IMG/VR virus record: IMGVR_UViG_3300027852_000024
DNA length: 40,168 nucleotides
Source: a virus
Direction: 5' to 3' (one strand)
In this document: positions 2,345 to 37,230 of the stretch, piece after piece
Numbering within the stretch: position 1 is the first letter of the stretch
Layout of the letters: the number at the start of each line of letters is the position of its first letter
Translations under genes and position numbers: made by a program
Notes under the pieces: generated by a model
What the model was told of the DNA's origin: nothing
Databases searched by the model: none
The model's input: only the letters and a program-made list of their open reading frames with translations

Positions 2345-2363
2345 GATTGCCACTGCGACAATC
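2345..2363. repeat. PAL-A dyad, degenerate copy (GATTGCCACTGCGACAATC)
   Basis: Non-coding hub; outer arms GATTG/CAATC retained. Confidence 0.6.
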
Positions 2364-2385
2364 TAACTGCCAACACCCAAACACT

Positions 2386-2505
2386 CTGGCTCCACACTGA
2401 ACACCGCCAACCACACCTAACTACCCTGGCTCCACACCGAACACCGCCAACCACACTGCTACTCTGGCTCCACACTGAATACCAAACCACACTGCTACTA
2501 CACAC
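2386..2505 (+). repeat. 38-40-bp tandem repeat x3 (CTGGCTCCACAC.GAA(C/T)ACC...CCACAC)
   Basis: CTGGC at 2386, 2426 and 2464; G-poor stretch. Confidence 0.8.
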
Positions 2506-2582
2506 AGCCTCACCAACACCACCACGTCCACGCTGAGCCACTCAAATGATGTAGCCATGTGTCGGTGAGGGTCAGGATACTC

Positions 2583-2627
2583 GGATTGCCACTGAGCATT
2601 GTGGCAATCCATAACACTTGGTGTTGT
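2583..2627. repeat. Composite module: PAL-A variant (GGATTGCCAC-N8-GTGGCAATCC, 2583-2610) directly abutting an iteron (2611-2627)
   Basis: 10-bp perfect arms; iteron ATAACACTTGGTGTTGT starts at the next base. Confidence 0.85.
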
Positions 2628-2639
2628 AGACAAGGGTGT

Positions 2640-2676
2640 GATTGCCACTGTGACAATCCACAACACTTAATGTTAT
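2640..2676. repeat. Composite module: PAL-A variant (GATTGCCACTGTGACAATC, 2640-2658) plus iteron (2660-2676)
   Basis: Same arrangement as 2583-2627. Confidence 0.8.
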
Positions 2677-2826
2677 TAGACAACCCTAACATTACTCATC
2701 ACCTCTAAGTTGGTTAGAGGTGGTGAATATTATTAGAAAGGCCGGTGGGGGGTAAGAGGGGGCTACCCCCAAAACAGATGAGGCATAATTGAGTATACGT
2801 ACCTACGCAGGCATTCCGTAAAATTT

Positions 2827-2960
2827 CAGCTTTTCTATTTTTCAGCTTTTCTATTTTTCAGCTTTTCTATTTTTCGGCCACATAAAATTTCAGCTTTTAT
2901 ATTTTTCAGCTTTTTATATTTTTCAGCTTTTTCTATTTTTCAGCTTTTCTATTTTTCAGC
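2827..2960 (+). repeat. 16-17-bp tandem array CAGCTTTT(T)CTATTTTT, 3 units (2827-2874) plus 5 units (2891-2960)
   Basis: CAGC recurs at 2827, 2843 and 2859 (degenerate at 2875), then at 2891, 2907, 2924, 2941 and 2957. Confidence 0.9.
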
Positions 2961-2963
2961 AGC

Positions 2964-2983
2964 ACTGCCACCAGTGGCTATCC
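2964..2983. repeat. PAL-A dyad, degenerate copy (ACTGCCACCAGTGGCTATCC)
   Basis: Core GCCACCAGTGGC intact. The right flank reads CTATCCACA, an 8/9 match to the DnaA-box consensus TTATCCACA. Confidence 0.6.
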
Positions 2984-2998
2984 ACAAGTATCCCCTTC

Positions 2999-3035
2999 AT
3001 AACACTTTCTGTTGTGGATTGTCACAGTGGCAATC
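2999..3035. repeat. Composite module in mirrored order: iteron (2999-3015) plus PAL-A variant (GATTGTCACAGTGGCAATC, 3017-3035)
   Basis: Inverted relative to the modules at 2583 and 2640. Confidence 0.8.
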
Positions 3036-3255
3036 TAACTGTTCAGAGTTAGCAATCCCATCCTATTATATAAGCTCACAAGGTGGCGCACAAAACAAGC
3101 CCAGCGGTCAAGCCAGATAGACACACACGGGAGATCCAAAAAATCTCATACCATAGTACACCTTATATATTAAGACTGTCCAGCGGCCCTGTGACAATCA
3201 CCTGCAAGAATCATGCCAAGCCATACCGAAGCAATAAATAAAGATATGCAAAGGC

Positions 3256-3284
3256 TTGACAACACTACCACAATGTGGTATACT
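3256..3284 (+). promoter_or_regulatory. Consensus sigma70-type promoter TTGACA-17 bp-TATACT with TGn extended -10 and palindromic spacer CCACAATGTGG
   Basis: -35 at 3256-3261, -10 at 3279-3284; drives the terminase genes. Confidence 0.75.
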
Positions 3285-3306
3285 GTATTTAATAGATCAA
3301 GACCAG

Positions 3307-3326
3307 GATTGCCACTGGTGGCAGTC
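3307..3326. repeat. PAL-A dyad (GATTGCCACTGGTGGCAGTC) in the 5' leader between promoter 3256-3284 and ATG 3349
   Basis: Read directly. Confidence 0.9.
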
Positions 3327-3348
3327 AAAGAAAAGAGGGGAGACGATA

Positions 3349-3831
3349 ATGGACTTTGATTTTTTAACAGAGCAGATTGATGAAGAAACACAGCCAAAGT
3401 ATGTTGGCCCAAATATGAAGTCAGCGGTTAAGATGACACCACGTAAGTTTGCATCGTCAGTACTTGAGGTGTTTGACAAACTTGGTGGAGTGTCTTGGCT
3501 ATTGATAGAAGCACAAGCAGACCCTAAAGCGTTTCTTGCGTTGCTGTCTAAGATGATACCAAAGAGCGTGCAACTTGATGATCTAGCAGGTATAGCTGTA
3601 ACAGTAGTCGACCAATTTGGTAGACAAGTTAAAGCAGAAGCGGTAAACGCAAATAACCAAACACAAATTGCTGCCACAATACCTTCTGAAGGCACGGAGT
3701 CCGGTCAACTCCAGATTGCCACTGGTGGCAGCCAGACTCCCCGGGCGGTTCTCTCCTCCTCACCTGGGGAGTCACCCCCAACTGATGTTGATATAACAGA
3801 CATATTTAAGAAGGGGGTTGATGATGAATAA
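3349..3831 (+). CDS. Candidate small terminase subunit (160 aa)
   Basis: GAGGGGAG RBS before ATG 3349; lies immediately upstream of and overlaps the large terminase; assigned by position only. Confidence 0.45.
   Translation: MDFDFLTEQIDEETQPKYVGPNMKSAVKMTPRKFASSVLEVFDKLGGVSWLLIEAQADPKAFLALLSKMIPKSVQLDDLAGIAVTVVDQFGRQVKAEAVNANNQTQIAATIPSEGTESGQLQIATGGSQTPRAVLSSSPGESPPTDVDITDIFKKGVDDE
3714..3733. repeat. PAL-A dyad inside a CDS (GATTGCCACTGGTGGCAGCC, encodes IATGG)
   Basis: Read directly. Confidence 0.9.
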
Positions 3832-5236
3832 TGACTACTTAGAAGAAGCTGCTAAGGGTAGGATAACAATACCATACAATTTCCATCCTCGTGAGTATCA
3901 GAAGGATGTGTACAACGCACTGCCACTCGGGTTTAAACGCGGTGTAGTGATATGGCATAGACGAGCAGGCAAGGACAAGACATTCATAAACATACTTGCG
4001 CGTGAAGCCTTTAAGAAAAGAGGTACTTACTTCTATATACTACCTTATTATAAGCAAGCACGATTGATTATATGGGAAGGTATGGACTCGTCGGGCTTTA
4101 GATTCATTGATCATTTTCCAGATAAGCTTGTTAAGCGTAGAGAGAACCAACAGATGGTCTTAGAGCTAACAAATGGGTCTGTTATAAGAATGGTTGGGTC
4201 TGATAATATTGATTCGATTGTTGGGACAAACCCAATAGGCGTAATATTTTCCGAGTTCTCACTGCACAAGTCAGCAGCGTGGAACTATTTACGGCCTATC
4301 TTACTCGAAAATGGTGGGTGGGCGCTGTTCAACGGTACTCCACGTGGGAAGAACCCATTGTGGAAAATGTACCAACATGCTAAGAAGGATAAAACATGGT
4401 TCAGTGAGATATTGACAATTAATGACACCACAAAAGAGGACAACACACCAGTTATAACAGAAGAAGACATACAAGTTGAGCTTCAATCAGGGATGCCAAA
4501 AGAACTGATCCAACAAGAGTACTATTGTTCCTTTGATGCTGGTCTTGTTGGGTCTATAGTGGGTGATCTGATGGCCAATGCGAGGGAAGAGGGGCGTATC
4601 GCAAGGATACCTTGGGAGCCTGAGTTAAGAGTAACAACTGCGTGGGATTTGGGATTTGATGACACCAACACTATTTGGTTCGCGCAGTTCTCTGGCAAAG
4701 AAGTATGGCTGATAGACTGCTATAGCAACAACAGGAAGCCAGCACCACACTATGTTAACGTACTTAACCAGAAACCGTACACATATGAGGAACACTTCTT
4801 CCCACATGATGTGGAGGTGCATGAGTACAGCACTGGGCTTACAAGGAGGGAGACGTTTGAGAACTTAGGGCTAAAGAATATAATAACAATTCCGCGAACC
4901 GGGGTCGCTGATAAAGGCCAGTTGTCAGAAGGACACAACGCTATGAGGCAGACTATACCAAAGTGCTTCTTTGATAAAGTAAAGTGTGATGATGGCATTG
5001 AGGCATTAAAATCGTACAGGCGGGAGTGGGAGGAGAAGAAGGAGAAGTTCTCTGACTCACCTGTTCGTGATTGGAGTAAGCATTTTGCTGATGCGTTTAG
5101 ACAACTTGCATGTGGTCTTGGGATAAGGCGGACAGGTAATATGCCTATAAGTCAGTATGCGTCGCAGAGTTACAATGAGCTTGATGGACTCGAAGACGAT
5201 AATCTTAACTACGATCCATTTGAGGACTACTTGTAA
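3821..5236 (+). CDS. terL: Terminase large subunit
   Basis: Walker A-like HRRAGKDKT, Walker B-like GVIFSEF, nuclease-domain-like AWDLGFDDTNTIWF; AAGGGGG RBS; the track start at 3818 is TTG and the first ATG is 3821. Confidence 0.85.
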   Translation: MMNNDYLEEAAKGRITIPYNFHPREYQKDVYNALPLGFKRGVVIWHRRAGKDKTFINILAREAFKKRGTYFYILPYYKQARLIIWEGMDSSGFRFIDHFPDKLVKRRENQQMVLELTNGSVIRMVGSDNIDSIVGTNPIGVIFSEFSLHKSAAWNYLRPILLENGGWALFNGTPRGKNPLWKMYQHAKKDKTWFSEILTINDTTKEDNTPVITEEDIQVELQSGMPKELIQQEYYCSFDAGLVGSIVGDLMANAREEGRIARIPWEPELRVTTAWDLGFDDTNTIWFAQFSGKEVWLIDCYSNNRKPAPHYVNVLNQKPYTYEEHFFPHDVEVHEYSTGLTRRETFENLGLKNIITIPRTGVADKGQLSEGHNAMRQTIPKCFFDKVKCDDGIEALKSYRREWEEKKEKFSDSPVRDWSKHFADAFRQLACGLGIRRTGNMPISQYASQSYNELDGLEDDNLNYDPFEDYL

Positions 5237-5254
5237 CTATCTATTTTAAAACGC

Positions 5255-5283
5255 TTGACAAGTATACCACATTGTGGTATACT
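5255..5283 (+). promoter_or_regulatory. Second consensus promoter TTGACA-17 bp-TATACT with spacer palindrome CCACATTGTGG
   Basis: -35 at 5255-5260, -10 at 5278-5283; nearly identical to 3256-3284. Confidence 0.75.
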
Positions 5284-5329
5284 CGTACTCATAAATAAAA
5301 GTGCGCTAAAAATTAAGGGAGGATGAACT

Positions 5330-5539
5330 ATGAGTGGAGTTTTTGATTTTATATCGAACAAAGGGGATGGTGATGAGATTGCCACTGGTGGCGATCAGAC
5401 AGACCCTGGGGCCATCACGGAAGAAATGAAAGAAGAGGCAAAGAAACTTGCTGCGTCTTCAAAAGGTCTTGACATAGCTGAGTTCCAAAAGAAGCATAAA
5501 ATACACATACTCAATGTTGACGAACTCTTAAAGGGATAA
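5330..5539 (+). CDS. Small acidic hypothetical protein (69 aa)
   Basis: AAGGGAGG RBS; lies between terL and the portal gene. Confidence 0.6.
   Translation: MSGVFDFISNKGDGDEIATGGDQTDPGAITEEMKEEAKKLAASSKGLDIAEFQKKHKIHILNVDELLKG
5377..5396. repeat. PAL-A dyad inside a CDS (GATTGCCACTGGTGGCGATC, encodes IATGG)
   Basis: Read directly. Confidence 0.9.
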
Positions 5540-5541
5540 AT

Positions 5542-7200
5542 ATGAGAGCTACACAAACTGACATAGAGACTCATATAACGCAGAAACAATCGTTAGTTGT
5601 GTCAAGAGGGATGTTTGATTCTCACTGGCAGGAAATTGGCGAGCTTATATATCCAGAACACGCTAACTTTACCTTTACCCCAGCACCTGGGGAGAAGAGG
5701 CTGTCTAAAGTATTTGACTCTGTTCCGACACATGCTAATCAGTTATTAGCTTCCGGCCTGTTCTCGTTGCTAACAAGTTCAGCAAGCCCTTGGTTCCATC
5801 TTAGACCAGTTAACCTGATGATGGCGAAGTCTCGTGAAGTGAATGTGTATCTCGATGAAGTGTCGTCCATAATGTATCATGAGATAAACAATCCTGTAGC
5901 TGGGTTTTCTTCTGCTATACACGAGGGTTACTTAGAATATGGTGCGTTTGGTAATATGACTATACTACTCGAAGAAAACTTAGAGCAGTCTTCTTTACGT
6001 TTTATGTCTTTACCATTGTATGAGTGTCATTTTATCGAAAACGCCCAGGGCGTAATCGATACTCTATACAGAACTTATGATAGGTCTGTAGGATTCTTGA
6101 TGCGTAAATTTGGCGTTGAAAACTTATCCGAAGCAGCTAAAAAGTTTATAGAAGAGGACAAACTTGACACAATAATAAAAGGATTGCACGTCATCCTTCC
6201 AAGGGACTTAATCGATCATTACTCTATCAAGTCAACTGATTTGCCTTTTGCATCTATGTACATAGATATCACCAATACACACTTGATGCATGAAGGTGGA
6301 TTCCATGAGTTGCCTTTTATGGCAGCAAGATTCTATAAATCGACTAATGAGGTGTACGGTCGTGGCCCAGGATCGACAGCTTTACCAGATACAAAGATGC
6401 TTATGCGAGTTGTTCAGGTGACTATAAGGGCAGCACAAAAGACAGTTGATCCACCAATGATACTACCAGATAGTGGGTTTTTACGCCCGTTACGTACTGT
6501 GCCTGGTGGGCTGAACTACTACCAGCGTGGGAGACTGAACTCGAAAAAAGATATCGACATCATCCCTACTGGAAACCCTGGATTTGGTGTTGACTATTCT
6601 AAATTATTGCACGAAAAGATACGAGAGATATTTTTTGTAAATCAGCTACAACTTGATACCGGCCCGCAAATGACAGCAACAGAAGTAATGCAGAGAACAG
6701 AAGAGAAGTTACGCTTGCTTGGCCCACTTCTTGGGCGTGTGCAGACTGAGTTGCTTGGCCCACTTATTAGAAGGGCGTACGGTCTACTAATGAGAGCAGG
6801 TAAGCTGCCTGAACCACCAGCAGTATTAGGAGACGCAAAGTTAAAAATAACATATACGTCCCCAATAGCAAGAGCGCAAGAGCAAGTTGAGGCTAATGGG
6901 CTAATGAGGGCGCTCGGTATACTCGAACCAATGCTCAAGTACAGCCCAGAAACAGCAGATATATTTGACACTGATGCTATGGGTCGTGGAGTTTTTAACA
7001 TGTATAGCATAAGCCAAAAGTATCTTAAAGACGAGAAGCAGGTTAAGGCTATTCGTAGCTCACGAGCTAAAGCGGAACAAGACCGGCAAGAAGCAGAGAA
7101 TCTAAGAGCGACTGGACAGGGTGCCGATTCCATGGCGAGAGCAGGAGCAACAGTGCAAGAAGCTGGACTCGGCTCTGGTGATTTTGGGCCACTACAATAA
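5542..7200 (+). CDS. Portal (head-tail connector) protein
   Basis: 552 aa, follows terL and precedes scaffold and capsid; size and synteny as in T7 gp8-type portals. Confidence 0.75.
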   Translation: MRATQTDIETHITQKQSLVVSRGMFDSHWQEIGELIYPEHANFTFTPAPGEKRLSKVFDSVPTHANQLLASGLFSLLTSSASPWFHLRPVNLMMAKSREVNVYLDEVSSIMYHEINNPVAGFSSAIHEGYLEYGAFGNMTILLEENLEQSSLRFMSLPLYECHFIENAQGVIDTLYRTYDRSVGFLMRKFGVENLSEAAKKFIEEDKLDTIIKGLHVILPRDLIDHYSIKSTDLPFASMYIDITNTHLMHEGGFHELPFMAARFYKSTNEVYGRGPGSTALPDTKMLMRVVQVTIRAAQKTVDPPMILPDSGFLRPLRTVPGGLNYYQRGRLNSKKDIDIIPTGNPGFGVDYSKLLHEKIREIFFVNQLQLDTGPQMTATEVMQRTEEKLRLLGPLLGRVQTELLGPLIRRAYGLLMRAGKLPEPPAVLGDAKLKITYTSPIARAQEQVEANGLMRALGILEPMLKYSPETADIFDTDAMGRGVFNMYSISQKYLKDEKQVKAIRSSRAKAEQDRQEAENLRATGQGADSMARAGATVQEAGLGSGDFGPLQ

Positions 7201-7210
7201 CATAAAAGGA

Positions 7211-7230
7211 GACTGCCACTGGTGGCAATC
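7211..7230. repeat. PAL-A dyad (GACTGCCACTGGTGGCAATC) lying between AAGGAG (7206-7211) and ATG 7231
   Basis: Read directly. Confidence 0.9.
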
Positions 7231-7482
7231 ATGATTAATAACTTGCTTAATAAAAAAATACACAGAGCGTACCAAGATGTTTTCGACGCTGGTGCGCCAC
7301 AAGTAAAATTAGTACTCAGCGATCTATGCAAAGCACATGGGGTATTCGACGGAGGCTTTGATCCTAACCCACATATTAATGCTTTCAACAGCGGTGAGAG
7401 AAATGTAATACTAAGGATATTGACCATATTAAAAATGAAACCAGCTGATATTATAAATTTAGCAGATAATGGAGGAGTATAA
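7231..7482 (+). CDS. Hypothetical virion-module protein (83 aa; alternative GTG start at 7222)
   Basis: ORF between portal and scaffold; stop overlaps the next start (TAATG). Confidence 0.55.
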   Translation: MINNLLNKKIHRAYQDVFDAGAPQVKLVLSDLCKAHGVFDGGFDPNPHINAFNSGERNVILRILTILKMKPADIINLADNGGV

Positions 7483-8360
7483 TGCAACCAACAACCACAC
7501 CAACAGCAGAGACACAAGCACCACCAGCACCACCAGCACCACCAGCAGAGCCACCAGCACCAGCACAACCAGCACAACCAGCACCACATGAGACTTGGAG
7601 AGACAGTTTGCCTGAGGACATGAGGGGATTACCAACTCTTGAGAAGTTCAAAGATGAAACCGAAATGGTGCGGATGCCGGTCAATGTAGCTCGTAGCTAC
7701 ATTAACGCCGAGCAGCTAATTGGTAGGGACAAGTTGCCTATACCGAAAACACAAGAAGAGTGGGACAGTACTTACGAGCGACTTGGGAAACCAAAGAGTA
7801 AGGAATTGTACGTCTTCCCTGTAAAAGAAGGCACAGACCAAAGATTAGTAGATGAGTTGACTAAGGACGCTGAGTGGTTTAGAGACAAAGCATTTGAACT
7901 CGGCCTGAGTGAGAAGCAAGCAACTGAATTATTCTCATCTTTCACAGACAATACAGTGGCTAACATTGAAAATATGCAGTCAACTGGAGCTGCCGAAAAG
8001 CTCAATGCAGAAGTTAAACTACGTTCAGAATTTGGTGCCGCTTATGATGGCAAGATGGTTCTGGCTGGCAGAGCTGCAAGGGAACTTGGAGGGCCAGAGC
8101 TTATTGAACTGCTTGACAAGACAGGAGTTGGGAACCACCCTGCTTTTATAAAGTACAATATGAAGGTAGGGGCTATGATGGCAGAAGACTTAGGTCTTGA
8201 CAAGAATACAGGCGAGCTATTACAGTCGACGGAGTCAGTCAAGGATAAAATTTTGGGCATCCAAACTTCACCTGAGTACACAGATGCTACCAACCCCGCG
8301 CATGCAAACGCGGTGGCTAAGGTAGCAAAATTGATGGAACACCTATATGGTGGAAAATAA
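7482..8360 (+). CDS. Putative scaffolding protein
   Basis: GGAGG RBS; Pro/Ala-rich N-terminus, then a charged, helical-looking sequence; lies between portal and capsid. Confidence 0.55.
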   Translation: MQPTTTPTAETQAPPAPPAPPAEPPAPAQPAQPAPHETWRDSLPEDMRGLPTLEKFKDETEMVRMPVNVARSYINAEQLIGRDKLPIPKTQEEWDSTYERLGKPKSKELYVFPVKEGTDQRLVDELTKDAEWFRDKAFELGLSEKQATELFSSFTDNTVANIENMQSTGAAEKLNAEVKLRSEFGAAYDGKMVLAGRAARELGGPELIELLDKTGVGNHPAFIKYNMKVGAMMAEDLGLDKNTGELLQSTESVKDKILGIQTSPEYTDATNPAHANAVAKVAKLMEHLYGGK

Positions 8361-9360: not shown

Positions 9361-9380
9361 GATTGCCACCAGTGGCAATC
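9361..9380. repeat. PAL-A dyad (GATTGCCACCAGTGGCAATC), perfect arms
   Basis: Between stop 9351 and AAGGAG/ATG 9406. Confidence 0.95.
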
Positions 9381-10545: not shown

Positions 10546-10565
10546 GATTGCCACTGGTGGCAATC
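10546..10565. repeat. PAL-A dyad (GATTGCCACTGGTGGCAATC), perfect arms
   Basis: Starts right after stop 10545 and is followed at once by AGGAGG and ATG 10576. Confidence 0.95.
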
Positions 10566-13251: not shown

Positions 13252-13709
13252 TAACTTACAAGCAGGAAGGGTATACCGATGTGCTTGGCGAAATGAAGAA
13301 CCTATTCAAGTCACAATGGGAAGAGGTTGGGCTAAACGCTCTGAGCGACCGCAACAGGGTACTTGACCCTAATTGGTCGATGTATGAGGCTCTGGACGGC
13401 GCCGGTAATTTACACGTGTACACCGCCAGGATTGCCACCAGTGGCAATCTCGTAGGCCACTGCATGTCCGTTGTGTACCCGCACCCGCACAGCAAGAATG
13501 TAATAGCTGCCGAAAATGACTTCCTGTACTTATCACCGAAGTATAGAACAGGATTCACGGGGGTTGGGCTTATAAATTTTGCTGTAGAAGAATTGAAAAA
13601 AGTAGCTGAGATAATCTTTTTTAACACGCATGTGCATAATTCATTTTTCCCTATACTACATAAGTTGGGGTTTAAACTTATAGAGCATAGGGCTATGCTG
13701 GAGGTTTAA
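13248..13709 (+). CDS. GNAT-family N-acetyltransferase-like protein
   Basis: ATGA overlap with the upstream gene; LSPKYRTGFTGVGLINFAVEELKK resembles GNAT motif A (R-x-x-G-x-G). Confidence 0.55.
   Translation: MITYKQEGYTDVLGEMKNLFKSQWEEVGLNALSDRNRVLDPNWSMYEALDGAGNLHVYTARIATSGNLVGHCMSVVYPHPHSKNVIAAENDFLYLSPKYRTGFTGVGLINFAVEELKKVAEIIFFNTHVHNSFFPILHKLGFKLIEHRAMLEV
13430..13449. repeat. PAL-A dyad inside a CDS (GATTGCCACCAGTGGCAATC, encodes IATSGN)
   Basis: Perfect arms. Confidence 0.95.
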
Positions 13710-14357: not shown

Positions 14358-14377
14358 GATTGCCACTGGTGGCAATC
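14358..14377. repeat. PAL-A dyad (GATTGCCACTGGTGGCAATC), perfect arms
   Basis: Between stop 14341 and GGGGAG/ATG 14394. Confidence 0.95.
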
Positions 14378-20395: not shown

Positions 20396-20415
20396 GATTG
20401 CCACTGGTGGCAATC
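20396..20415. repeat. PAL-A dyad (GATTGCCACTGGTGGCAATC), perfect arms
   Basis: Between stop 20392 and AGGAG/ATG 20432. Confidence 0.95.
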
Positions 20416-22716: not shown

Positions 22717-22736
22717 GATTGCCACTGGTGGCAGTC
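22717..22736. repeat. PAL-A dyad (GATTGCCACTGGTGGCAGTC)
   Basis: Between stop 22711 and GGGGGA/ATG 22751. Confidence 0.9.
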
Positions 22737-25342: not shown

Positions 25343-25353
25343 AGGAGGTAACA

Positions 25354-25746
25354 ATGGCTGTACCTGAAGTAATAACAGAAATAATACAAGATAGACCAAC
25401 TTCTAAGACTCTTACAAAAGAAAAGTCTTGGAGATTAGTTTACGGTAGTAATAATGAGGTCACTAATTTATTCGAAAGCGCTGGTGTGACTTATGCACCC
25501 AACTTCATGAAGTGCTTTGAGACAAATGAAGAAGCTGGTCTTTATATCGAAAGCGAATATTTAAAATGTCATAAGGCTGTGATAAAAGACGGAGTTGTTG
25601 AGAGTTTAACAGAGATTAAAACTAACATGGCCGTAACATTAAAAATAGGTGAATACGCTTTCTACTCTGCTGATCTCGATGATTTTAGAACACACGCACG
25701 TGAACAAAAGTGGGATATTGAGAAGGTTATAGATATACTGTACTAA
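25354..25746 (+). CDS. Hypothetical protein (130 aa), last gene of the rightward arm
   Basis: AAAGGAGG RBS before ATG 25354. Confidence 0.6.
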   Translation: MAVPEVITEIIQDRPTSKTLTKEKSWRLVYGSNNEVTNLFESAGVTYAPNFMKCFETNEEAGLYIESEYLKCHKAVIKDGVVESLTEIKTNMAVTLKIGEYAFYSADLDDFRTHAREQKWDIEKVIDILY

Positions 25747-25756: not shown

Positions 25757-25792
25757 AAAAAGCAGACTGCCACCAGTGGCAGTCTGCTTTTT
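25757..25792. terminator. Bidirectional intrinsic terminator built on an extended PAL-A dyad (AGCAGACTGCCACCAGTGGCAGTCTGCT)
   Basis: 12-bp arms, A5 upstream and T5 downstream; sits exactly where the converging arms meet (stops at 25746 and 25794). Confidence 0.85.
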
Positions 25793-26660: not shown

Positions 26661-29396
26661 CTATTGTAGATCATATATTTCATTAGAAAACTCCAAGCCC
26701 AAAGATGTTGCTGGAACCAAACCAGCAATCAGTGCTGTAACTTTGTCGCCCACCCTGTGTCTCTCAACACGCAGATAAGGGAACAGTGTTTTTATACTAC
26801 GGATAGAAGCTCTCTTTTGCACCAGTCCCTCCTTAGTAGGTTGTCCTATCCGAAGACAAAAAGCTCTAAAGTACATAGTGAAGTCCCGTTGTTCAACCCA
26901 CTCACTTTTTCCAGAACAGGCGTCTACCTTATAGTAATTGTTTATGTACGACTTCAAAGGGTCTATCTGTTCCATTAACGAAACTTTGGCAACAATGCCC
27001 TTCTCTGGTTCAGCAAACCTCTTTCGCTTGCTCAAGCGTTCAAGTCCTGTCATATGCCATCGTATGATTTTCGCCAACCCTTCTTCGACTATCAACCTAT
27101 CTAAGCCTAATATTTCGTCAGATGTCCCACGAAATTCTTTCGTGAAAGTGGCCATCATTAGCCTTTGGGCTAAAGCACCAGTGTCATCTGGCAGTACTGG
27201 CGTTTTATTTGTCAGCATTATAAGTTTGCATTCTAACAACTCTGTAGTTATACTGACCCCCTTGTCCTCCGAATCCACATAATCCTGGCCTATGACTTTC
27301 AATAGCACGGGTACTATAGCTTTTAGTATATTAAAATCTATTGTTCTTGCTTCGGACATAACCGCCAACTTTTTACCTGGCAGAGTACCAAGGCCGAATC
27401 TCCCTGTTAACTTCTCCATAGATACCGCAGAGTGATAATTAGAACCCACACAAGATTGAAGAACTTTTGCTAATATACTTTTACCACTACCCGGTACGCC
27501 CTCTATGATGAGCATCTTGTGTAAATAGTAGGAGTCAGCTAAGATATACCCGCCGTATTCTCGTATCAATTCAACAGTCTCCAAGTCTTCTTCGCACGAG
27601 GCCACTAAAAAATCTATATATCTTTCGGGCTGCTTGCCATCTGAGTCCACCCATTCTTTGTATGTTATTGGTAACTCTTTGTATATACAATCCTCCTTTT
27701 TTAAAGTTCTTACTGACTTACTGGATAGCCACTGGTGGCTATCCGAAAAGATATCACGCATAATAATACCGTACCTGCCACCTTTGAAGGCCCACCCACT
27801 GCCCTTCGGAAACTCTGCCATCGACAGACACGCTTCCCGCATTATGATGTTAGCCAGTTGTTCAGTTTTGCTGTACCCGATTTCTACTTTGATTGGTATG
27901 GCAGCATGTATGTGGTTGTAAACAAAAGCTTTTGTTTGTGTGCTGTTACAGCACATCCATATCTTAGTATCCGAGAAGTAGCACCAGAACTCACCTGATA
28001 TAGTCTTGTGTCTTGAATATATAATTCTTTGCCTCTTAAATATACTCGCCATATGCCTCAGATTAGCGTCTGGATCGTACACATCACTGTGCGAAGCTTG
28101 ATCTTTTCTCAAGTTCTTCCAAGAGCTTTTTAATGCTGTAATACTTACTTTTTTTGTTTGTGTTTTTATAGCCGTGAACAGTCGCTCACGTGATAATTCT
28201 GTGAGGTGTAAGTCGTACATGTCCTGTATTATACTATCGATGATCCTTCTGTTGTCGCCCTTATACCCTCCTTCTGTTAGCCATTCGGTGCGATATATTA
28301 GTTCCTGTTGGACTTCATCTTGGTACACTGTGTCGTTGAGTACTGCTTGATTCAGCATGAACTCAAACTCTTTCAGGATACCAGGGTCTTCATTTTTGTT
28401 GAGGATTGCCCAATTGTACGCCACATCATAGGCGTTAAGACTTTTCCTTTTGTTCTTGAAAGTCTTTTCTATTATCTGATTTATCGGATCGCCATCGTGA
28501 TGTGAAAATATATACCCATTGTCAAAAACTATAACTCCCGGTATACCAGTTTCGGAACTCGGTGCAAGGTATCTATTTTCTTCGATATGCGTGTACCCCA
28601 TTGATGTGAGTACTACTTCTGGCAATACCCTTCTGCAGAATGAGCCTACCTTCCCAGGTAAACTCATAGCTGTTGGCATATCGCCGAACGAAATTGATTG
28701 CTTTGGAGCAAAGTACGGCTGCCACCCTGTTGGGACATGGGATTTATCTTTTTTAACGTAACTCAACCTCGGAAAATGTGGGTCTTTTAAACTCAATGGA
28801 TCAACAAGATTAGACCACAGAGGTTTAGCTGTGAAAATTGGTTGTGTTAGATTGAAATAAAATGTGGCGTCAACAGGTATGTTATCTTTTTTAATCCACA
28901 TACCTATCTCTCGTGGATACTGCGGTTCTTCGAGCATAAAAATAATATGGCATCTTAGACACGGAGTCTCTTTGAGTAGAAAAGAAGAACTAAAGCATAG
29001 TGTGTACGTTGTGTTATTAAACTCAGGTGGCAGATATTCTTTTATAAATTTATCTACTTCTTTCACTGATTGTTTATAATCTTTTTTATGTACGTTCTTC
29101 ACCTCATACTTGTCTAAATCAAGTATGAGGTGTGACACAGGTTCTTCCTCAAAATTCTTAAGTGTTCTATCTGTGTCTATTATCTCCGGTCGTGTAGCTG
29201 TACCCATAACAGTACAGGTATTAGGGGTGTCAAGTAGCATAGAACACAGGCTGAACATATCCTCTGGCGTGTTGGATATTGTTTGTAGCCCTATGTCGTT
29301 ACTCCAAGTCGGGCCAAGATATTTGCCATCCGTTTTGCAATATGGCCTCCCCTTAATACGTGATCGTACAAGAGTTATAGTGCATTTATTTTCCAT
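26661..29396 (-). CDS. DNA primase/helicase (SF3, D5/P4-type P-loop NTPase with large N-terminal domain)
   Basis: 911 aa; Walker A GVPGSGKS; lies in the replication module. Confidence 0.7.
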   Translation of the reverse strand: MENKCTITLVRSRIKGRPYCKTDGKYLGPTWSNDIGLQTISNTPEDMFSLCSMLLDTPNTCTVMGTATRPEIIDTDRTLKNFEEEPVSHLILDLDKYEVKNVHKKDYKQSVKEVDKFIKEYLPPEFNNTTYTLCFSSSFLLKETPCLRCHIIFMLEEPQYPREIGMWIKKDNIPVDATFYFNLTQPIFTAKPLWSNLVDPLSLKDPHFPRLSYVKKDKSHVPTGWQPYFAPKQSISFGDMPTAMSLPGKVGSFCRRVLPEVVLTSMGYTHIEENRYLAPSSETGIPGVIVFDNGYIFSHHDGDPINQIIEKTFKNKRKSLNAYDVAYNWAILNKNEDPGILKEFEFMLNQAVLNDTVYQDEVQQELIYRTEWLTEGGYKGDNRRIIDSIIQDMYDLHLTELSRERLFTAIKTQTKKVSITALKSSWKNLRKDQASHSDVYDPDANLRHMASIFKRQRIIYSRHKTISGEFWCYFSDTKIWMCCNSTQTKAFVYNHIHAAIPIKVEIGYSKTEQLANIIMREACLSMAEFPKGSGWAFKGGRYGIIMRDIFSDSHQWLSSKSVRTLKKEDCIYKELPITYKEWVDSDGKQPERYIDFLVASCEEDLETVELIREYGGYILADSYYLHKMLIIEGVPGSGKSILAKVLQSCVGSNYHSAVSMEKLTGRFGLGTLPGKKLAVMSEARTIDFNILKAIVPVLLKVIGQDYVDSEDKGVSITTELLECKLIMLTNKTPVLPDDTGALAQRLMMATFTKEFRGTSDEILGLDRLIVEEGLAKIIRWHMTGLERLSKRKRFAEPEKGIVAKVSLMEQIDPLKSYINNYYKVDACSGKSEWVEQRDFTMYFRAFCLRIGQPTKEGLVQKRASIRSIKTLFPYLRVERHRVGDKVTALIAGLVPATSLGLEFSNEIYDLQ
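27724..27743. repeat. PAL-A dyad variant inside the primase CDS (GATAGCCACTGGTGGCTATC), with both arms changed in a compensating way
   Basis: Perfect dyad; encodes DSHQWLS on the minus strand. Confidence 0.85.
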
Positions 29397-29520
29397 TGTC
29401 GCCTCTATTTTCTATTATTTGGATTGCCACTGGGGCTGTCCGAGAGTAAACTGTGAGTATTTTTCTGCACCGATTGCATTGATACACTGATTTAATCTTA
29501 GTCTTCAACACCCGAATCAT
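29383..29520 (-). CDS. Possible small ORF (45 aa, MIRVLKTKIKSVYQCNRCRK...) overlapping the primase start
   Basis: GGAGG 4 nt before ATG 29520; below the ORF-track size cut-off; translated by hand. Confidence 0.35.
29421..29441. repeat. PAL-A dyad, degenerate copy (GGATTGCCACTGGGGCTGTCC)
   Basis: Upstream of AGAGG/ATG 29396. Confidence 0.65.
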
Positions 29521-31750: not shown

Positions 31751-32034
31751 AGCACCTCCTTCCTGTTTAATATTTTTCTTAATGCTATAATTTTTTTTGT
31801 GTACTGTAATTTTTTCTTGTCCAGTCTGTCCTCAACTCCTTTGAAGTACATTATCCTACCTATTACAGCGCCAGCCCACGTAGTAGGCCACCTGCTTTTC
31901 CTGAACTTTCGTATCCCCCAAAAGGCCAAAGGCGGAGTTTCATCACTAACAGGCACATAAAAGTCTTCGTCGTCTTCATCGTCTTTAACTTCAAGGGAGT
32001 GTACCTTTCCTAAGTGGAACTTATATATATTCAT
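31747..32034 (-). CDS. Hypothetical protein (95 aa)
   Basis: AAAGGA RBS before ATG 32034; the longer track ORF starts at a TTG inside the dyad. Confidence 0.5.
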   Translation of the reverse strand: MNIYKFHLGKVHSLEVKDDEDDEDFYVPVSDETPPLAFWGIRKFRKSRWPTTWAGAVIGRIMYFKGVEDRLDKKKLQYTKKIIALRKILNRKEVL

Positions 32035-32049
32035 AGTTAATCCTTTTGT

Positions 32050-32069
32050 GATTGCCACTGGTGACAATC
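32050..32069. repeat. PAL-A dyad (GATTGCCACTGGTGACAATC)
   Basis: Between the polymerase stop (32081) and the RBS/ATG 32034 on the minus arm. Confidence 0.9.
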
Positions 32070-32080
32070 ACGTTTAGTAT

Positions 32081-34042: not shown

Positions 34043-34602
34043 TACAGTCTCCTTCTAAACACTCCTTCAAGCAAAATTAAATAATTTATACTATCACCAA
34101 TCTTTTCGTCAATCATTTCGTCAGTTATCTTGACATTACCCTCAATCATGTCCATAACACATACCTCATGCTTGACCATCATACCTTTAAGCGCGGCTTC
34201 TGGTGAGCAATTAATCATCCTTCCAGCAACATCAAAGTTATGAAAACGATTATCACCATGTGCGTATTCACACTCTTTCTCCGCTAATACCTTTTGTATT
34301 TTAGCTATGCGATTTTCAAGTACAGTGCCAAAAGCTGTCTTTGGTTTTGTCACTGTAGCTTTATTTGGCGCCTTCGCTCTTGCGCTAACGTGTTGGCTTA
34401 GTTCTCCAGAATTTATACCGCAGTATTTATGCCGTGCTTGGGTGTTCTTCGGAGCCTCGACACCACATTTATGCTCCCTTAAACACTTTTCTACTACGCT
34501 AATCGCCTCGCCCCATACTACATAGCGCGCGCCATTAGTTGTTTCATTACGTTTTTTACGCAACACCTGTATAATATCTACCAATACTTTTTTTGTCTCC
34601 AT
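34042..34602 (-). CDS. Hypothetical protein (186 aa)
   Basis: AAAGGAG RBS; stop overlaps the polymerase start (TAATG). The C-terminal half faintly recalls MazG/DUF1599-like helical domains, which I cannot verify. Confidence 0.5.
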   Translation of the reverse strand: METKKVLVDIIQVLRKKRNETTNGARYVVWGEAISVVEKCLREHKCGVEAPKNTQARHKYCGINSGELSQHVSARAKAPNKATVTKPKTAFGTVLENRIAKIQKVLAEKECEYAHGDNRFHNFDVAGRMINCSPEAALKGMMVKHEVCVMDMIEGNVKITDEMIDEKIGDSINYLILLEGVFRRRL

Positions 34603-34623
34603 TTTTCACTCCTTTAATATAAG

Positions 34624-34655
34624 AGCAGACTGCCACCAGTGGCAGTCTGCTTTTT
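34624..34655. terminator. Extended PAL-A hairpin identical to the one at 25761-25788; its T5 tract lies on the plus (antisense) side only
   Basis: AGCAGACTGCCACCAGTGGCAGTCTGCT followed by TTTTT. In the sense (minus) direction it is followed by CTTATATT and then the RBS of the next gene. Confidence 0.6.
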
Positions 34656-34715
34656 AAGTTTGTCCTACATAAAGTTGAAGTCTGCTTTTTAAGTTTGTCC
34701 TACATAAAGTTGAAG
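34646..34715. repeat. Perfect 35-bp tandem duplication (TCTGCTTTTTAAGTTTGTCCTACATAAAGTTGAAG x2)
   Basis: 34646-34680 equals 34681-34715; copy 2 holds the SSB stop and its last codons. Confidence 0.95.
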
Positions 34716-35425
34716 TCTTCCATCGGTTCTTTTTTACCCACGCCCTCGCTAACGGCTCCGTTACCTGATTGGTCATCCACAGAATCCTCTGTATTATTTT
34801 CAGAGAACATCCCGGAGGCCTCGTCAGCGAAGTCAGAAAAAGCGGCGGACGCTTCTGATGTAGAAGTACCAGCCCCAAGGTTTTCGCCGTCTCTTGTCTT
34901 CATAATCGCCTCAAGAGAAGTGCTTATACCTTTGTTGCCAGCAGTGTCGTAGTACCAAAACTCAAGCATCACTCTGTAGTACGCACCCGAGTACACATCA
35001 TCGAGGGTCAAAATTGATGGGGGTACGGGTTTACCCATCGCGCCTATAACATGTGGCTGTCTGAAACGGTTGTTTGTGTTGATAAAATAGCAACCTTTCA
35101 ATTGTTCCGAGTTTGATAAAGCCGCTGAGTCTTCGGGCTTATCCCCATCACGAACAGGAAAAGAATTTTTGTTGAGTATAGCTTGCGCCACGTCTTTTGC
35201 CTTCTCTTTACCAAATTTGTCCATCAGAACTTTTGCGTACACCTGTTTCAGGTCATCCACCCACTGCTCGACTACAGGAGATTTTTTAAAAACACACTGC
35301 ATCCCCCAGGCCAGTACGTCACTCTGTGGTAGAGGACGCGCCTCAAGTATATTTACATAACTCCCACGACACTCTGGTGTCACACATCCTTTACCAGCCA
35401 CATTGATGTTGTATCCTTTTGACAT
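34700..35425 (-). CDS. DUF2815-type phage ssDNA-binding protein
   Basis: Pattern ...PVRDGDKPE...GCYFINTNN...PHVIG...VYSGAYYRVMLEFWYYDTAGNKGISTSLEAIM..RDGE.LG and acidic C-terminal tip EDFNFM. Confidence 0.7.
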   Translation of the reverse strand: MSKGYNINVAGKGCVTPECRGSYVNILEARPLPQSDVLAWGMQCVFKKSPVVEQWVDDLKQVYAKVLMDKFGKEKAKDVAQAILNKNSFPVRDGDKPEDSAALSNSEQLKGCYFINTNNRFRQPHVIGAMGKPVPPSILTLDDVYSGAYYRVMLEFWYYDTAGNKGISTSLEAIMKTRDGENLGAGTSTSEASAAFSDFADEASGMFSENNTEDSVDDQSGNGAVSEGVGKKEPMEDFNFM

Positions 35426-35464
35426 GTTATAACTCCCTTATACTACTGTTTGATTATATCTGTT

Positions 35465-37171
35465 TTATTTTATTGTAATAGTCCCATCAGAATAAACCTC
35501 GTACCCATACCCATCACGCTCATTAAGATACCTAAGATGCATCTTTACCATGTTTACGGTGCAATCAAGTTGCAAGGATATGTCTCTTAAATTCAAGCCA
35601 TTCTGTGCCATTTCCAAAACTTTGCGTCTTTTTGTGCCTTTCTTTGGTAATTTTGGTGAGTCCTCCCTTTTCTCACCGCTTGATACCAAAGTTACTTTTT
35701 CGTTGTGTACTTCTTCCCCAATTCTACCCACAAGTCTCCCCATTTGTCCGCCGCCATCATCACCACCATCATCGCCGCCGTCATCATCATCGCCGCCATC
35801 ATCATCGCCGCCATCATCATCCCACATACTCATACGCTCAAGAACACTGAGCTTCTTCTTCTCCCCAACTGACTCCGACCCGTCCTGCTCATGCCCTTCT
35901 ACCATAATAGGCACTCCCTTAGCTTCAAATACACTGGACTTGCTGTCGTCATTGTCGTCATTGTCGTCATTGCTGTCTGCAAACTCTTTAAATGCTTTTT
36001 CTTTCTCCTTTTCCTCATTAATATTTATTTCGTTGCGTTTGTCGGACTCAACGACAAGAGTCGGAGAGCCTTTTGGTTTGGTTATGTAGTCCGCCAAGTT
36101 GATTTCTTTTGCGGCTTTTTTACCAATACTTTTCTCTGCTTTTGATGGCGATATGAGCTTTTTCTCAAAAGGTTCGGTGTCGTTAGCCAAAAGAAAATTA
36201 GCGATCTGCTTGTCCTCAACTTTCCATTTTCTGTTTGACCTACCTTCAACCAATTTATACCCTGGCACTCTTTCACCAGATAGTGCTTCTTTCAAAATGT
36301 GTTCATTAATACCATCCATCCAGCTTCGTATGAACCCAAACTTTGATTTAAGTTTGGCCATATCAGCAAGACTCAATACTTTTTTATCCTCCGTATCTAC
36401 TTCACCCGGTGGGTCTTCTCCTGTAAAAGGCGCAAAAGCCCTTGCGGAATCGGCCATAGCTTTATTGGCCCTCGCAACACATCCGTCTACCCTGCACCAT
36501 TTGCATTGTTTGACCCCAGGGTTGCATGGTAGCTTTGACGGTTCACCTCTTTTATGCGCCTTAAGCACTGGTGCTAAAATATTTTTTGCAAAATCATTCA
36601 GCTCCGCCCTTGTGTATTCGTGTTTACGTATAGGGTTTGGAGTTCTTGGTTGTATTATATAAGTAACTATATGGTTCGGTTTCAACGAATATTTTTGCAT
36701 CAGCCATATAAGACAACCTATAGCGTATATTTTTAATTGGGTATTTTCCTCTGCGCTAACGACCACACCCGCCCCCATCTTTAAATCAATAGGGATCAAC
36801 GTGTCCTTGTTCCATAGCATCGCATCAACTGTCCCCCAACATTGGTCTGTTATAACTACTTTGTTCTCGATGCGTCCTCCGATCGCACCATATTCTTTTG
36901 ATATCCCCTTTACTTCATCGATATACATTTGTATGCCATCAGTTAGCTCTTGCGTAATAGCCACGCCATCAATAAGCTTACCTGTAAATTGCGACGCTTG
37001 CGCTATGTTCTTAGTCAAGCACTTTTCAGCTAAACTGTGGCACACTGTACCTTCCTTGGCAAACGATGATGTTGTGTTTTTACATTTTTCAGATAAGTAT
37101 AAACTTGCGGGGCATTCCAACCATCTGCTTGACGACGAGGGTGAAAAGTACGCATGTTGTTCGTCTCCCAT
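35465..37171 (-). CDS. DUF2800/Cas4-like PD-(D/E)XK nuclease with Cys cluster and a long acidic C-terminal extension ending in an HTH-like segment
   Basis: N-terminal FSPSSSSRWLECPAS; CNPGVKQCKWCRVDGC; D/G and D/N runs; AGGAGG RBS. Confidence 0.7.
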   Translation of the reverse strand: MGDEQHAYFSPSSSSRWLECPASLYLSEKCKNTTSSFAKEGTVCHSLAEKCLTKNIAQASQFTGKLIDGVAITQELTDGIQMYIDEVKGISKEYGAIGGRIENKVVITDQCWGTVDAMLWNKDTLIPIDLKMGAGVVVSAEENTQLKIYAIGCLIWLMQKYSLKPNHIVTYIIQPRTPNPIRKHEYTRAELNDFAKNILAPVLKAHKRGEPSKLPCNPGVKQCKWCRVDGCVARANKAMADSARAFAPFTGEDPPGEVDTEDKKVLSLADMAKLKSKFGFIRSWMDGINEHILKEALSGERVPGYKLVEGRSNRKWKVEDKQIANFLLANDTEPFEKKLISPSKAEKSIGKKAAKEINLADYITKPKGSPTLVVESDKRNEININEEKEKEKAFKEFADSNDDNDDNDDSKSSVFEAKGVPIMVEGHEQDGSESVGEKKKLSVLERMSMWDDDGGDDDGGDDDDGGDDGGDDGGGQMGRLVGRIGEEVHNEKVTLVSSGEKREDSPKLPKKGTKRRKVLEMAQNGLNLRDISLQLDCTVNMVKMHLRYLNERDGYGYEVYSDGTITIK

Positions 37172-37204
37172 AATTCTTAAATCCTCCTAACAGTTATTGT
37201 TATA

Positions 37205-37230
37205 CCGGATTGCCACTTATAGCAATCCGG
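37205..37230. repeat. PAL-A dyad variant (CCGGATTGC-CACTTATA-GCAATCCGG)
   Basis: 9-bp outer arms kept, centre replaced; between the ParB-like stop (37249) and the RBS/ATG 37171. Confidence 0.7.

Follow-up and report, generated by a model that had tools for sequence, protein, structure and literature searches.

Dispersed 20-bp dyads in an uncultured podovirus family as candidate sites for an orphan ParB-like protein

What does a phage do with a single palindromic word that recurs all along its genome? The question is raised by IMG/VR virus record IMGVR_UViG_3300027852_000024, a stretch of 40,168 nt analysed here at its full length (the window), in which the dyad GATTGCCAC-YR-GTGGCAATC (GATTGCCACYRGTGGCAATC) has 19 matches at up to three mismatches. 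Only 0.01 matches would be expected, and none of 100 dinucleotide shuffles reached 19, in agreement with an earlier reading of this DNA (the original prediction), which had placed the 20-mer far above chance. The same reading proposed three roles, namely operators for a dimeric DNA-binding protein, stem-loops in RNA, or landmarks in DNA, and held that sequence alone could not separate them; comparison among related phages does separate them in part. With a probability of roughly 0.6, we would read the dyads as operator- or parS-like sites in double-stranded DNA for a phage-encoded dimer. The overall most likely reader of these sites is a ParB/KorB/Noc-like protein encoded at 37249–38352, an assignment that we make tentatively and hold at somewhat short of even odds.

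The dyad word and where it lies

All 15 copies previously listed as near-perfect start at the positions given and carry zero to two mismatches each. The accompanying list of eight degenerate copies also names real sites, but several of its starts, centres and grades were wrong. The copy at 27724 has only two mismatches, which are symmetric, and equals the near-perfect set; three others start at 2963, 29422 and 37208 rather than at 2964, 29421 and 37205; those at 2345, 2640 and 3017 are variants with a shorter centre, and the one placed at 2583 begins at 2584 and has a longer centre. A further copy, at 1369, had been overlooked. Copies outside the non-coding control region (1215–3255) are given here, and those within it are described with that region below; handles such as c9105 and L056 denote individual relatives.

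3307–3326: one mismatch; 23 nt downstream of the promoter at 3256–3284 and 22 nt upstream of ATG 3349 (putative small terminase, TerS); syntenic in c9105, L056 and L052
3714–3733: two mismatches; inside the putative small-terminase gene, read as QIATGGSQ; syntenic in five relatives
5377–5396: one mismatch; downstream of the promoter at 5255–5283, inside the small open reading frame (ORF) 5330–5539; syntenic in four relatives
7211–7230: one mismatch; follows the portal stop codon and is followed by ATG 7231
9361–9380: perfect; after the capsid gene, with TGT/ACA flanks that lengthen the palindrome by 3 bp
10546–10565: perfect; between the TAG stop of tail tubular protein A and AGGAGG/ATG 10576
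13430–13449: perfect; inside gene 13248–13709 (RIATSGNL)
14358–14377: perfect; intergenic, with ATG 14394 16 nt further on
16073–16092: GACTGCC..GGCAGTC; inside gene 14394–16226; the syntenic copy in c17527 has a flipped centre
18736–18755: in the middle of the gene for a 1388-amino-acid (aa) internal virion protein (WTATSGNL); syntenic in c17527
20396–20415: perfect; intergenic, ahead of the tail-fibre ATG 20432
22717–22736: one mismatch; intergenic, ahead of ATG 22751
25757–25792: dyad 25765–25784 within a 16-bp stem with A5/T5 flanks, where the two arms converge (-25.5 kcal/mol, z -7.65); resembles a bidirectional intrinsic terminator hairpin
27724–27743: symmetric T>A / A>T change; lies within the primase gene (DSHQWLSS); in c17527 the syntenic copy is altered in one arm only
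29422–29441: decayed, with the left half intact and six mismatches overall; c17527 and L052 keep a good copy here, and in c9105, L056, L060 and L059 a copy lies some 100 bp from it, near window coordinate 29540
32050–32069: one mismatch; between the PolA stop codon and the next minus-arm gene
34624–34651, minus strand: dyad 34628–34647 with a GCA/TGC stem extension, after the single-stranded DNA-binding protein (SSB) gene; terminator- or attenuator-like on the minus strand; syntenic in four relatives, c9105, L060, L059 (two copies) and L052
37208–37227: three mismatches; between the ParB-like stop codon and the DUF2800 start; copy kept in six relatives

To describe the word itself, we pooled 206 non-redundant copies from the window and its relatives, each oriented by the local direction of transcription. 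The resulting logo extends the dyad to 22 bp, with a purine before G1 (A in 68% and G in 23%, never C) and a base other than G after C20, and it contains no asymmetric flanking signals (no -35/-10 and no general T run). The centre dinucleotide is CA or TG in 189 copies, CG in 10 and TA in 4. The centre is therefore one flexible pyrimidine-purine step in either orientation, and both kinds occur on both arms of the window, as had been claimed.

Outside the control region, 11 of the 17 copies fall within about 1.4 kb of intergenic DNA, an enrichment of about 46-fold, and six lie in genes. The slot described by the original prediction, with a stop codon, the dyad, and then a Shine-Dalgarno (SD) sequence and ATG, holds for those 11. 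Many gene junctions lack a copy, for example those among seven small genes at 22.9–25.7 kb, and long genes hold internal copies, so the dyad is not a per-gene translation signal. Within genes, one codon phase accounts for five of six copies in the window and for 31 of 37 deep in-gene copies across the family. This favoured phase, nnG-AYT-GCC-ACY-RGT-GGC-ART-Cnn, encodes (I/T)-A-T-(G/S)-G-(N/S), and a single benign phase is what one expects of a DNA word imposed on protein at least cost.

The word is conserved well beyond the window. The exact 20-mer is found in 34 IMG/VR stretches, from relatives about 65–70% identical to the window in nucleotides, and 21, 13 (from a partial genome) and 16 copies were counted in three near-complete relatives. 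The unchanged word also recurs about once per 1.5–2 kb in contigs recovered by way of ParB-like homologues as little as 47% identical; among these contigs is L056, whose ParB-like protein is itself only 47% identical to that of the window. When the motif was masked and the copies were mapped by synteny, those at 3307, 3714, 5377, 7211, 10546, 14358, 16073, 18736, 20396, 27724, 34628 and 37208 were found to hold syntenic positions across relatives, some with flipped centres, and other copies have been gained or lost.

Bacterial and archaeal chromosomes present the opposite picture. Among 185,579 species genomes (596 Gb, one genome per species) there are 17 exact copies, all of them single and in unrelated DNA, none of it phage-related; the true phage host may lie outside these genomes. 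Because no genome among them repeats the word, it appears to be specific to phages rather than a host repetitive extragenic palindromic (REP) element, and a borrowed element of the REP or bacterial interspersed mosaic element (BIME) kind, which would be present at high copy number in the host, was rejected. The phage specificity proposed by the original prediction thus holds up, in that we found no such host repeat and homologous phages keep the dyad. One relative was binned with a gammaproteobacterial metagenome-assembled genome.

The same scan bears on the idea that the dyads are sites for a conserved host protein, such as a transcription factor or nucleoid protein, which the phage recruits or titrates. 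A slowly evolving reader of this kind would explain why the word stays invariant while phage proteins diverge to about 50% identity, and distantly related phages with other dyads (see below) could infect other hosts. Yet no genome of the 185,579 contains more than one exact copy, which means that no host regulon there uses the exact 20-mer, and to our knowledge the dyad matches no bacterial operator consensus. We consider a host reader highly improbable.

Searches of literature text matched 14-mers of the dyad nowhere, and 9-mers only in unrelated primers. Three further candidate identities were dropped: a sigma-54 promoter, since the spacing is unlike -24/-12; a recombinase site, since at least 15 sites in both orientations would scramble the genome; and a restriction site, since we know of no enzyme with a matching site.

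DNA site or RNA stem

The original prediction took co-varying substitutions in the two arms to mean that symmetry or pairing is what is conserved. The window contains four symmetric double changes as against seven single-arm changes, and in the 206 pooled copies the arms vary almost independently. At positions 3/18, the left arm alone is changed in 40 copies, the right alone in 36 and both in 29 (21.8 expected, odds ratio 2.0); the corresponding counts are 13, 15 and 1 (1.1 expected) at positions 7/14 and 10, 14 and 3 at positions 4/17. Conservation of pairing is thus unsupported in the window family. Paired RNA should in addition tolerate G·U and not C·A. Among transition departures on the sense strand, the G·U type (58, plus 5 ambiguous) and the C·A type (65, plus 7) are equally common, which argues against a general RNA stem. 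Of 117 half-site pairs, 111 have a spacer of exactly 2 bp; the six exceptions, with centres of 1 nt or 8 nt, are confined to the control region in the window and in the two relatives nearest to it.

If the dyads did act in RNA, each would form a stem of 8–9 bp closed by a tetraloop, and could be a processing site, a 3' or 5' stabiliser, or the target of a hairpin-binding protein or nuclease, cutting the operons into units of 1–3 kb. Several observations speak for such a role. It would suit the 11 of 17 copies that stand between a stop codon and the next SD/ATG, and every copy folds as predicted. Complementarity of the flanks is at chance level apart from a tail, in which 19 of 205 copies (about 9%) have at least four extra Watson-Crick pairs where 3.6 such copies would be expected. 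The members of this tail in the window, 25765 and 34628, are both terminator-like, with added pairs and T runs. But loop length is fixed in 95% of copies, the arms are independent, and C·A departures are as frequent as those of the G·U type. The exact sequence is moreover frozen at about 50% protein divergence, where a plain structural hairpin would drift, one third of the copies lie in genes while many junctions are empty, and an Rfam scan found no match (a tRNA scan was likewise negative). We therefore regard a general role in RNA as unlikely.

The specific comparison made by the original prediction was with the RNase III sites between T7 genes. The likeness consists of repeated intergenic hairpin elements in long polycistronic transcripts and a T7-like order of structural genes. 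In the T7 RNase III sites the stem is irregular, interrupted by internal loops and at least about 20 bp long; these sites are conserved in structure and are strand-specific, and a stem of 8–9 bp is too short for a classical substrate of E. coli RNase III such as the T7 sites. The window elements differ in having that short stem, a frozen sequence with neither covariation nor G·U tolerance (58 G·U against 65 C·A), independent arms, a fixed spacer, and one third of their copies in genes. We accordingly do not place them in this class. Nor are they Rho-independent terminators in general, as no U tract generally follows the dyad; 25757–25792 does have the features of that class, and 34624–34651 has them in part. 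What survives of the RNA proposal is thus a terminator-like minority, comprising 25765 and 34628 in the window and about 9% of copies across the family.

These data fit a fixed-geometry, double-stranded site for two identical subunits, with a minority of copies probably co-opted as hairpin terminators. Of the roles originally proposed, operators for a dimeric binder are best supported, by the independence of the half-sites, the fixed 2-bp spacer, the lack of asymmetry between G·U and C·A, and the invariant sequence.

The copies are also spaced more evenly than chance would allow. In three genomes the coefficient of variation (CV) of spacing is 0.50–0.57, compared with 0.93 by chance (P 0.0008–0.017). 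For the window, with a null model that confines intergenic copies to gene junctions, the CV is 0.43 compared with 0.92 (P 0.0002). Even coverage at about 2 kb suggests a distance-dependent process. The dyads might also be landmarks that act through DNA structure or strand breakage, for example as nicks (as in T5, phiKMV, LUZ24 and tf), as sites of primase priming or helicase loading, or as recombination hot spots involving the DUF2800 nuclease and Enc34-type SSB. Even spacing on both arms independent of gene junctions, a function that appears symmetric and strand-independent, the persistence of copies inside genes, and a phage-encoded ligase, primase-helicase, PD-(D/E)XK nuclease and SSB are all consistent with this. 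However, Pfam and PHROG scans of the window genes found no nickase or HNH enzyme, sequence reports nothing on nicks or priming, and the phage nick consensus sequences that we know of are asymmetric and lie on one strand only. Landmarks would still need a recognition protein, and the ParB-like candidate would then return. We consider landmarks of this kind quite improbable, and return to the dyads as sites for a phage-encoded dimer.

An orphan ParB-like protein as candidate reader

Only one product of the window has a recognisable sequence-specific DNA-binding domain in the Pfam and PHROG scans:

37249–38352, minus strand: orphan ParB/Noc/KorB-like gene, 367 aa, candidate binder of the dyads

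The protein consists of an N-terminal ParB-CTPase fold (NPxR, YGHHRxxA and ENxxD boxes), a central helix-turn-helix (HTH; IAQFLGDTWSRQTIQDALQVLE) and long C-terminal helices. Pfam gives weak matches to ParB_N (E 4.5e-4, below the gathering score) and HTH_ParB, and a family profile searched against the PDB matches H. pylori ParB, Noc and Spo0J. An AlphaFold model (pLDDT, the predicted local distance difference test score, 88.8) has helices at 166–173 and 179–190. Foldseek searches with the model returned a Noc-DNA complex (7ol9) at the top, together with ParB-parS, ParB-CDP and KorB (8qa8, 8qa9), over 260–298 columns at E 1e-6 to 1e-5; the structural match spans both the N-terminal nucleotide-binding domain and the HTH domain. 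The protein thus has the two marks of the ParB-CTPase class, an N-terminal ParB/Srx fold with its sequence boxes and a central HTH domain. Residues N14-P15-R17, G60-H61-H62-R63-A66 and E103-N104 are invariant or nearly so across the family. Orphan ParB-CTPase proteins are common in phages and mobile elements (PMC12704722). Here too a ParA-like ATPase is lacking, both among the window genes (Pfam and PHROG scans) and beside the gene in relatives, so that the locus is not a canonical ParABS system and we describe the protein as an orphan ParB-like protein.

What might connect this protein with the dyads? First, the HTH block 161–186 (..GVGASIIAQFLGDTWSRQTIQDAL..) is near-invariant in a family whose members are otherwise 47–100% identical, which parallels the invariance of the dyad. 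Second, copies lie directly upstream of the ParB-like gene in six relatives and directly downstream of it in six genomes. Third, three distant lineages have dispersed dyads of their own, and in two of these (L075 and L197) the ParB-like and DUF2800 genes are adjacent and the arms divergent, as in the window. Distant sister lineages thus carry a dyad of different sequence, the kind of compensating element to be expected if the original prediction of a phage-specific system is right.

One of these lineages is represented by L075 (lineage B, with L184 and L189; IMGVR_UViG_3300037755_000785, 18,235 bp), whose large terminase (TerL), portal and ParB-like proteins are 43%, 27% and 28% identical to those of the window. 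Its dyad GTGAAACGTTTCAC, (GGG)GTGAAAC|GTTTCAC(CCC), occurs 18 times within 18.2 kb, occupying the same slots at gene junctions and flanking the ParB-like gene on both sides. Its core consists of the halves of canonical parS (TGTTTCAC|GTGAAACA) in swapped order. In L197 (lineage D; JGI 3300033153 Ga0366824_1006150), eight copies of CGA(G/C)TCTGTAG-N2-3-CTACAGA(C/G)TCG at 1747–7510 are confined to early-arm junctions and the control region and flank its ParB-like gene; the L197-type dyad was found neither in the structural arm (L198) nor in L199. The third lineage is represented by a 5.5-kb fragment, L108 (lineage C; IMGVR_UViG_3300033143_007077), with TerL 53% identical to that of the window. 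It has four copies of ATGGGTGCCAYGTGGCACCCAT at the TerS, TerL and portal junctions (1100–3270), which have the core TGCCA..TGGCA in common with the window dyad, the halves being 2 bp closer. Pattern scans of viral and metagenome sequences for a longer contig of this lineage turned up nothing beyond L108 and single chance matches. By portal, L199 is nearest to L108 (84%) and lacks such a dyad, and L197 (58%) belongs to lineage D. The dyads of lineages A (the window family), B and D are GATTGCCAC..GTGGCAATC, GTGAAAC|GTTTCAC and TCTGTAG..CTACAGA, and the predicted recognition helices are WSRQTIQDAL in the window family, WAEGDIRNAV in L075 and WTITAISYLL in L197. Helix and dyad that differ together form the pattern expected of a co-evolving pair of protein and site.

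Similar elements have been described in other systems. The lytic Cluster O mycobacteriophages provide the closest precedent, as a class of phenomenon and not as a family related by homology. Corndog, a non-temperate phage, carries 34 copies of the invariant 17-bp dyad 5'-TGTTCGGNNNCCGAACA; many Cluster O copies are intergenic and about one third lie in genes, the centre is asymmetric, there is no clear orientation to transcription, and most are not at promoters (PMC4351075). The authors predicted a dimeric DNA-binding protein, left the function unexplained, and did not link gp90, which has a ParB N domain, to the repeat (PMC4351075). The two systems are alike in having an invariant dyad in tens of copies genome-wide, both intergenic and in genes, without promoter association, in a phage that encodes a protein with a ParB N domain. 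They differ in that Cluster O phages are siphoviruses with another host and another sequence, with 7-bp arms around a 3-bp centre and copies denser at one end of the genome. Corndog gp90 and the window protein have no similarity beyond the ParB N domain (hhalign probability 0.9%).

KorB of plasmid RK2 is a CTP-dependent sliding clamp that loads at OB palindromes scattered over the plasmid and silences distant promoters (PMC11790492). Like the window protein, it combines a ParB-family N-terminal CTPase fold with an HTH and belongs to a mobile element with a dispersed palindrome, some sites of which are far from promoters. Control-region variants of the window dyad that abut a second dyad (described below) recall the pairing of OB with OA, the sites of KorB and KorA. 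OB is a 13-bp palindrome, TTTAGCSGCTAAA, whereas the window dyad is 20–22 bp; KorB also acts with KorA and IncC (a ParA), serves a plasmid rather than a lytic-type phage, and has GERR in place of GHHR. Noc of Bacillus subtilis is likewise an orphan ParB paralogue that binds a palindrome scattered round a replicon and spreads. Its Noc-binding sites (NBS) are many, lie in the chromosome, and have a role in cell division. Noc differs in having a membrane-targeting N-terminal helix and controlling cell division, and nothing in the window protein suggests membrane binding. Finally, the stoperators of Cluster A mycobacteriophages (L5, TipsytheTRex) are repressor sites found in many copies genome-wide, in short intergenic gaps near start and stop codons, and affect elongation rather than initiation (PMC9283540). 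Placement at junctions is common to stoperators and the window dyads. Stoperators are, however, asymmetric 13–14-bp sites for a monomeric immunity repressor, oriented with transcription, in temperate phages; the window has equivalent half-sites in both orientations and no repressor or integrase was found among its genes, so we do not assign its dyads to that class.

By analogy with ParB, Noc and KorB, we infer that the ParB-like protein binds the dyads, binds nucleotide and slides, with a biological outcome at the level of the whole chromosome. In this model, the protein would be made from the early arm, and its HTH would recognise each 9-bp half-site (GA[T/C]TGCCAC); both half-sites, with their centres 11 bp apart, would be read from the same face of the helix. 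Closure of the N-terminal nucleotide-binding domains might next produce a clamp able to slide away from its site, and loading sites spaced ~2 kb apart on both arms could let the protein cover the entire phage chromosome. The result would be genome-wide control of transcription, through KorB-like silencing or road-blocking at gene junctions, or organisation of the replicating DNA, or both; copies with extra flanking pairs and a T run would serve as intrinsic terminators as well. Variant-spacing sites and the second dyad in the control region might act like the OB-OA pairs of KorB and KorA, and the 17-bp dyads of Cluster O might be explained along the same lines. In its fullest form, the model holds that an uncultured podovirus family uses an orphan nucleotide-dependent clamp, loaded at about 20 evenly spaced parS-like dyads, to coat or patrol its chromosome as a genome-wide form of self-marking or silencing, with helix and dyad diversifying together. 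We consider this complete version somewhat unlikely.

A number of observations weigh against the dyads as DNA sites for a dimer or against the ParB-like protein as their reader. Across the family, 63 intergenic copies have CA as their sense-strand centre and 29 have TG, a count uncorrected for shared descent, whereas a purely symmetric DNA site predicts no such bias; for in-gene copies the numbers are CA 20 and TG 15, and the window alone has no such bias. Shared descent may be the sole cause, or TG may be avoided because it places an SD-like GGTGG on the mRNA. The control-region variants, which conserve the arms around 1-nt or 8-nt centres, fit hairpins or a flexible binder more readily than a rigid dimer. 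Five L075 copies have long covarying stem extensions, and in L197 a G/C position is swapped symmetrically in both arms in seven of eight copies, a perfect covariation. Covarying stems in lineage D and in subclasses within A and B therefore suggest that hairpin formation matters for some copies at least. The centre bias, the arm-conserving variants and the stem extensions of lineages B and D are also points in favour of a role in RNA.

Other observations concern the protein. YGHHRxxA replaces GERRxRA, with loss of the catalytic E and the first R, so that CTP binding or hydrolysis is uncertain and another nucleotide chemistry may apply; CTP, ATP and GTP are all possible ligands of ParB-fold proteins (PMC12704722). 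The link between protein and site is circumstantial, since the dyad is accompanied by all core genes of the family alike, and the joint change of helix and dyad does not single out this gene, being compatible also with other lineage-specific genes or a change of host. Of 36 other phage loci with distant ParB-like homologues, 35 show no multi-copy dyad, which means that the protein family does not generally imply dispersed sites. That generalisation was rejected on the loci of L066–L102, where only L075 has a multi-copy dyad; the others share only the ParB-like gene with the window, and as a control they are weak. Some 75 loci related through TerL (41–53% identity) have neither dyads nor the ParB-like gene, and are a weak control because they also lack the whole early module. 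Finally, the region upstream of the ParB-like gene (38353–38510, minus strand) contains a dyad copy in six relatives and none in the window.

In the window, 38353–38510 holds the short direct repeat GAACATTATA twice and ACTTTAGACTTT(T)AA twice, with a weak sigma70-like site TTGACC-17-AAAAAT, and the regulatory region of this ParB-like gene appears to have been replaced. Apparent dyad matches in L086 and L095, two unrelated phage contigs among the 36 loci, are tandem arrays. The L086 array (6431–6737) is an 18-bp tandem repeat. That of L095 (19818–20700) repeats every 36 bp over some 15 or more units; AGCGAGCTA...GAGAAATCC is conserved, the spacers vary, and the whole has a CRISPR- or TIGR-like look.

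Dispersed invariant dyads had been seen in lytic phages of Cluster O and never explained. The window family makes the question testable, as it offers a candidate of the ParB-CTPase class, natural swaps of specificity, and quantitative signatures suggestive of a distance-dependent mechanism at the level of DNA. Should the ParB-like protein indeed load at the dyads, CTP-clamp biology would extend from segregation and plasmid silencing to the management of a whole genome in a virus, and a compact pair of 20-bp site and protein would be available for synthetic long-range regulation. If the sites instead act in RNA or mark nicks, they would still define the punctuation of 20-kb operons read by host RNA polymerase from very few promoters.

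Control region and genome layout

The control region separates the two arms and concentrates the departures from the standard dyad. Its features, with the two promoters, are:

1215–3255: non-coding control region, 2 kb, between the divergent arms; holds variant-spacing copies, about ten second dyads and several tandem repeat arrays
1369–1388: dyad with three mismatches; abuts second dyad ACAACACTTTGTGTTAT
2345–2363: 19-bp dyad variant with a 1-nt centre
2584–2609: dyad variant with an 8-nt centre; second dyad follows
2640–2658: 19-bp dyad variant with a 1-nt centre; second dyad follows
2963–2982: dyad with three mismatches; at the end of the 16-bp tandem repeat array
3017–3035: 19-bp dyad variant with a 1-nt centre; second dyad precedes; inverted partner of 2640–2676
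3256–3284, plus strand: sigma70-like promoter, TTGACA-17-TATACT with extended -10 (TG), at the start of the structural arm
5255–5283, plus strand: second sigma70-like promoter, identical in form to 3256–3284; both are strong

The second dyad, A(C/T)AACA(C/A)WWNNTGTT(A/G)T, is unrelated to the main one and is confined to the control region, with about ten copies at 1384–1740 and 2605–3015. At four places (1369–1406, 2584–2627, 2640–2676 and, inverted, 2999–3035) it abuts a degenerate or variant-spacing main dyad, an arrangement retained in the closest relative, L052 (5123–5157), and not in more distant relatives. By analogy with KorA/OA beside KorB/OB, it may be the operator of a second protein, or else an origin iteron. 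The region also contains tandem units of GGTGTTTTT at 1450–1500, eight units of 16–17 bp, TTTTCTATTTTTCAGC, at 2815–2960, and direct repeats of 57 bp and 40 bp at 2135–2520 that are rich in CACTCAGC and CTGGCTCCACAC. An ORF of 145 aa at 2099–2536 lies wholly within repeats and has no homologue, and is therefore probably not a gene.

The first and last 127 bases of the window are identical (1–127 = 40042–40168), so that the contig closes into a circle of about 40,041 bp; the window is a complete podovirus genome of ~40 kb. The end repeat could be either a circular-assembly overlap or a short direct terminal repeat; its position inside ORF 39462–40154 speaks for the former, with the genome being closed or circularly permuted. 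Two divergent arms cover the genome, the plus arm at ~3.3–25.7 kb and the minus arm at 25.8–40 kb, running on to 357–1214. The plus arm is a T7-like structural module, which begins with a large terminase, portal, scaffold/protease-like protein and capsid, and continues with tail tubular proteins A and B, internal virion proteins (including the 1388-aa protein, which has a lysozyme domain) and a tail fibre. The minus arm encodes an ATP-dependent ligase, a DUF5906 primase-helicase, an SNF2 helicase and a family A polymerase, together with the Enc34-type SSB, the DUF2800 PD-(D/E)XK nuclease and the ParB-like protein.

Pfam and PHROG scans of the window genes found no phage RNA polymerase, integrase, repressor or ParA, and no plasmid-maintenance genes were seen in the window. 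No close cultured relative emerged when 23 kb were compared with GenBank phages by megablast, and tblastn gave no match for the ParB-like protein; the best portal match is Pelagibacter phage HTVC010P, at 38%. The final gene of the plus arm, at 25321–25746, has a weak match to a SegE-type GIY-YIG endonuclease (E 0.007, below threshold), and its product could be a homing endonuclease encoded beside the terminator dyad.

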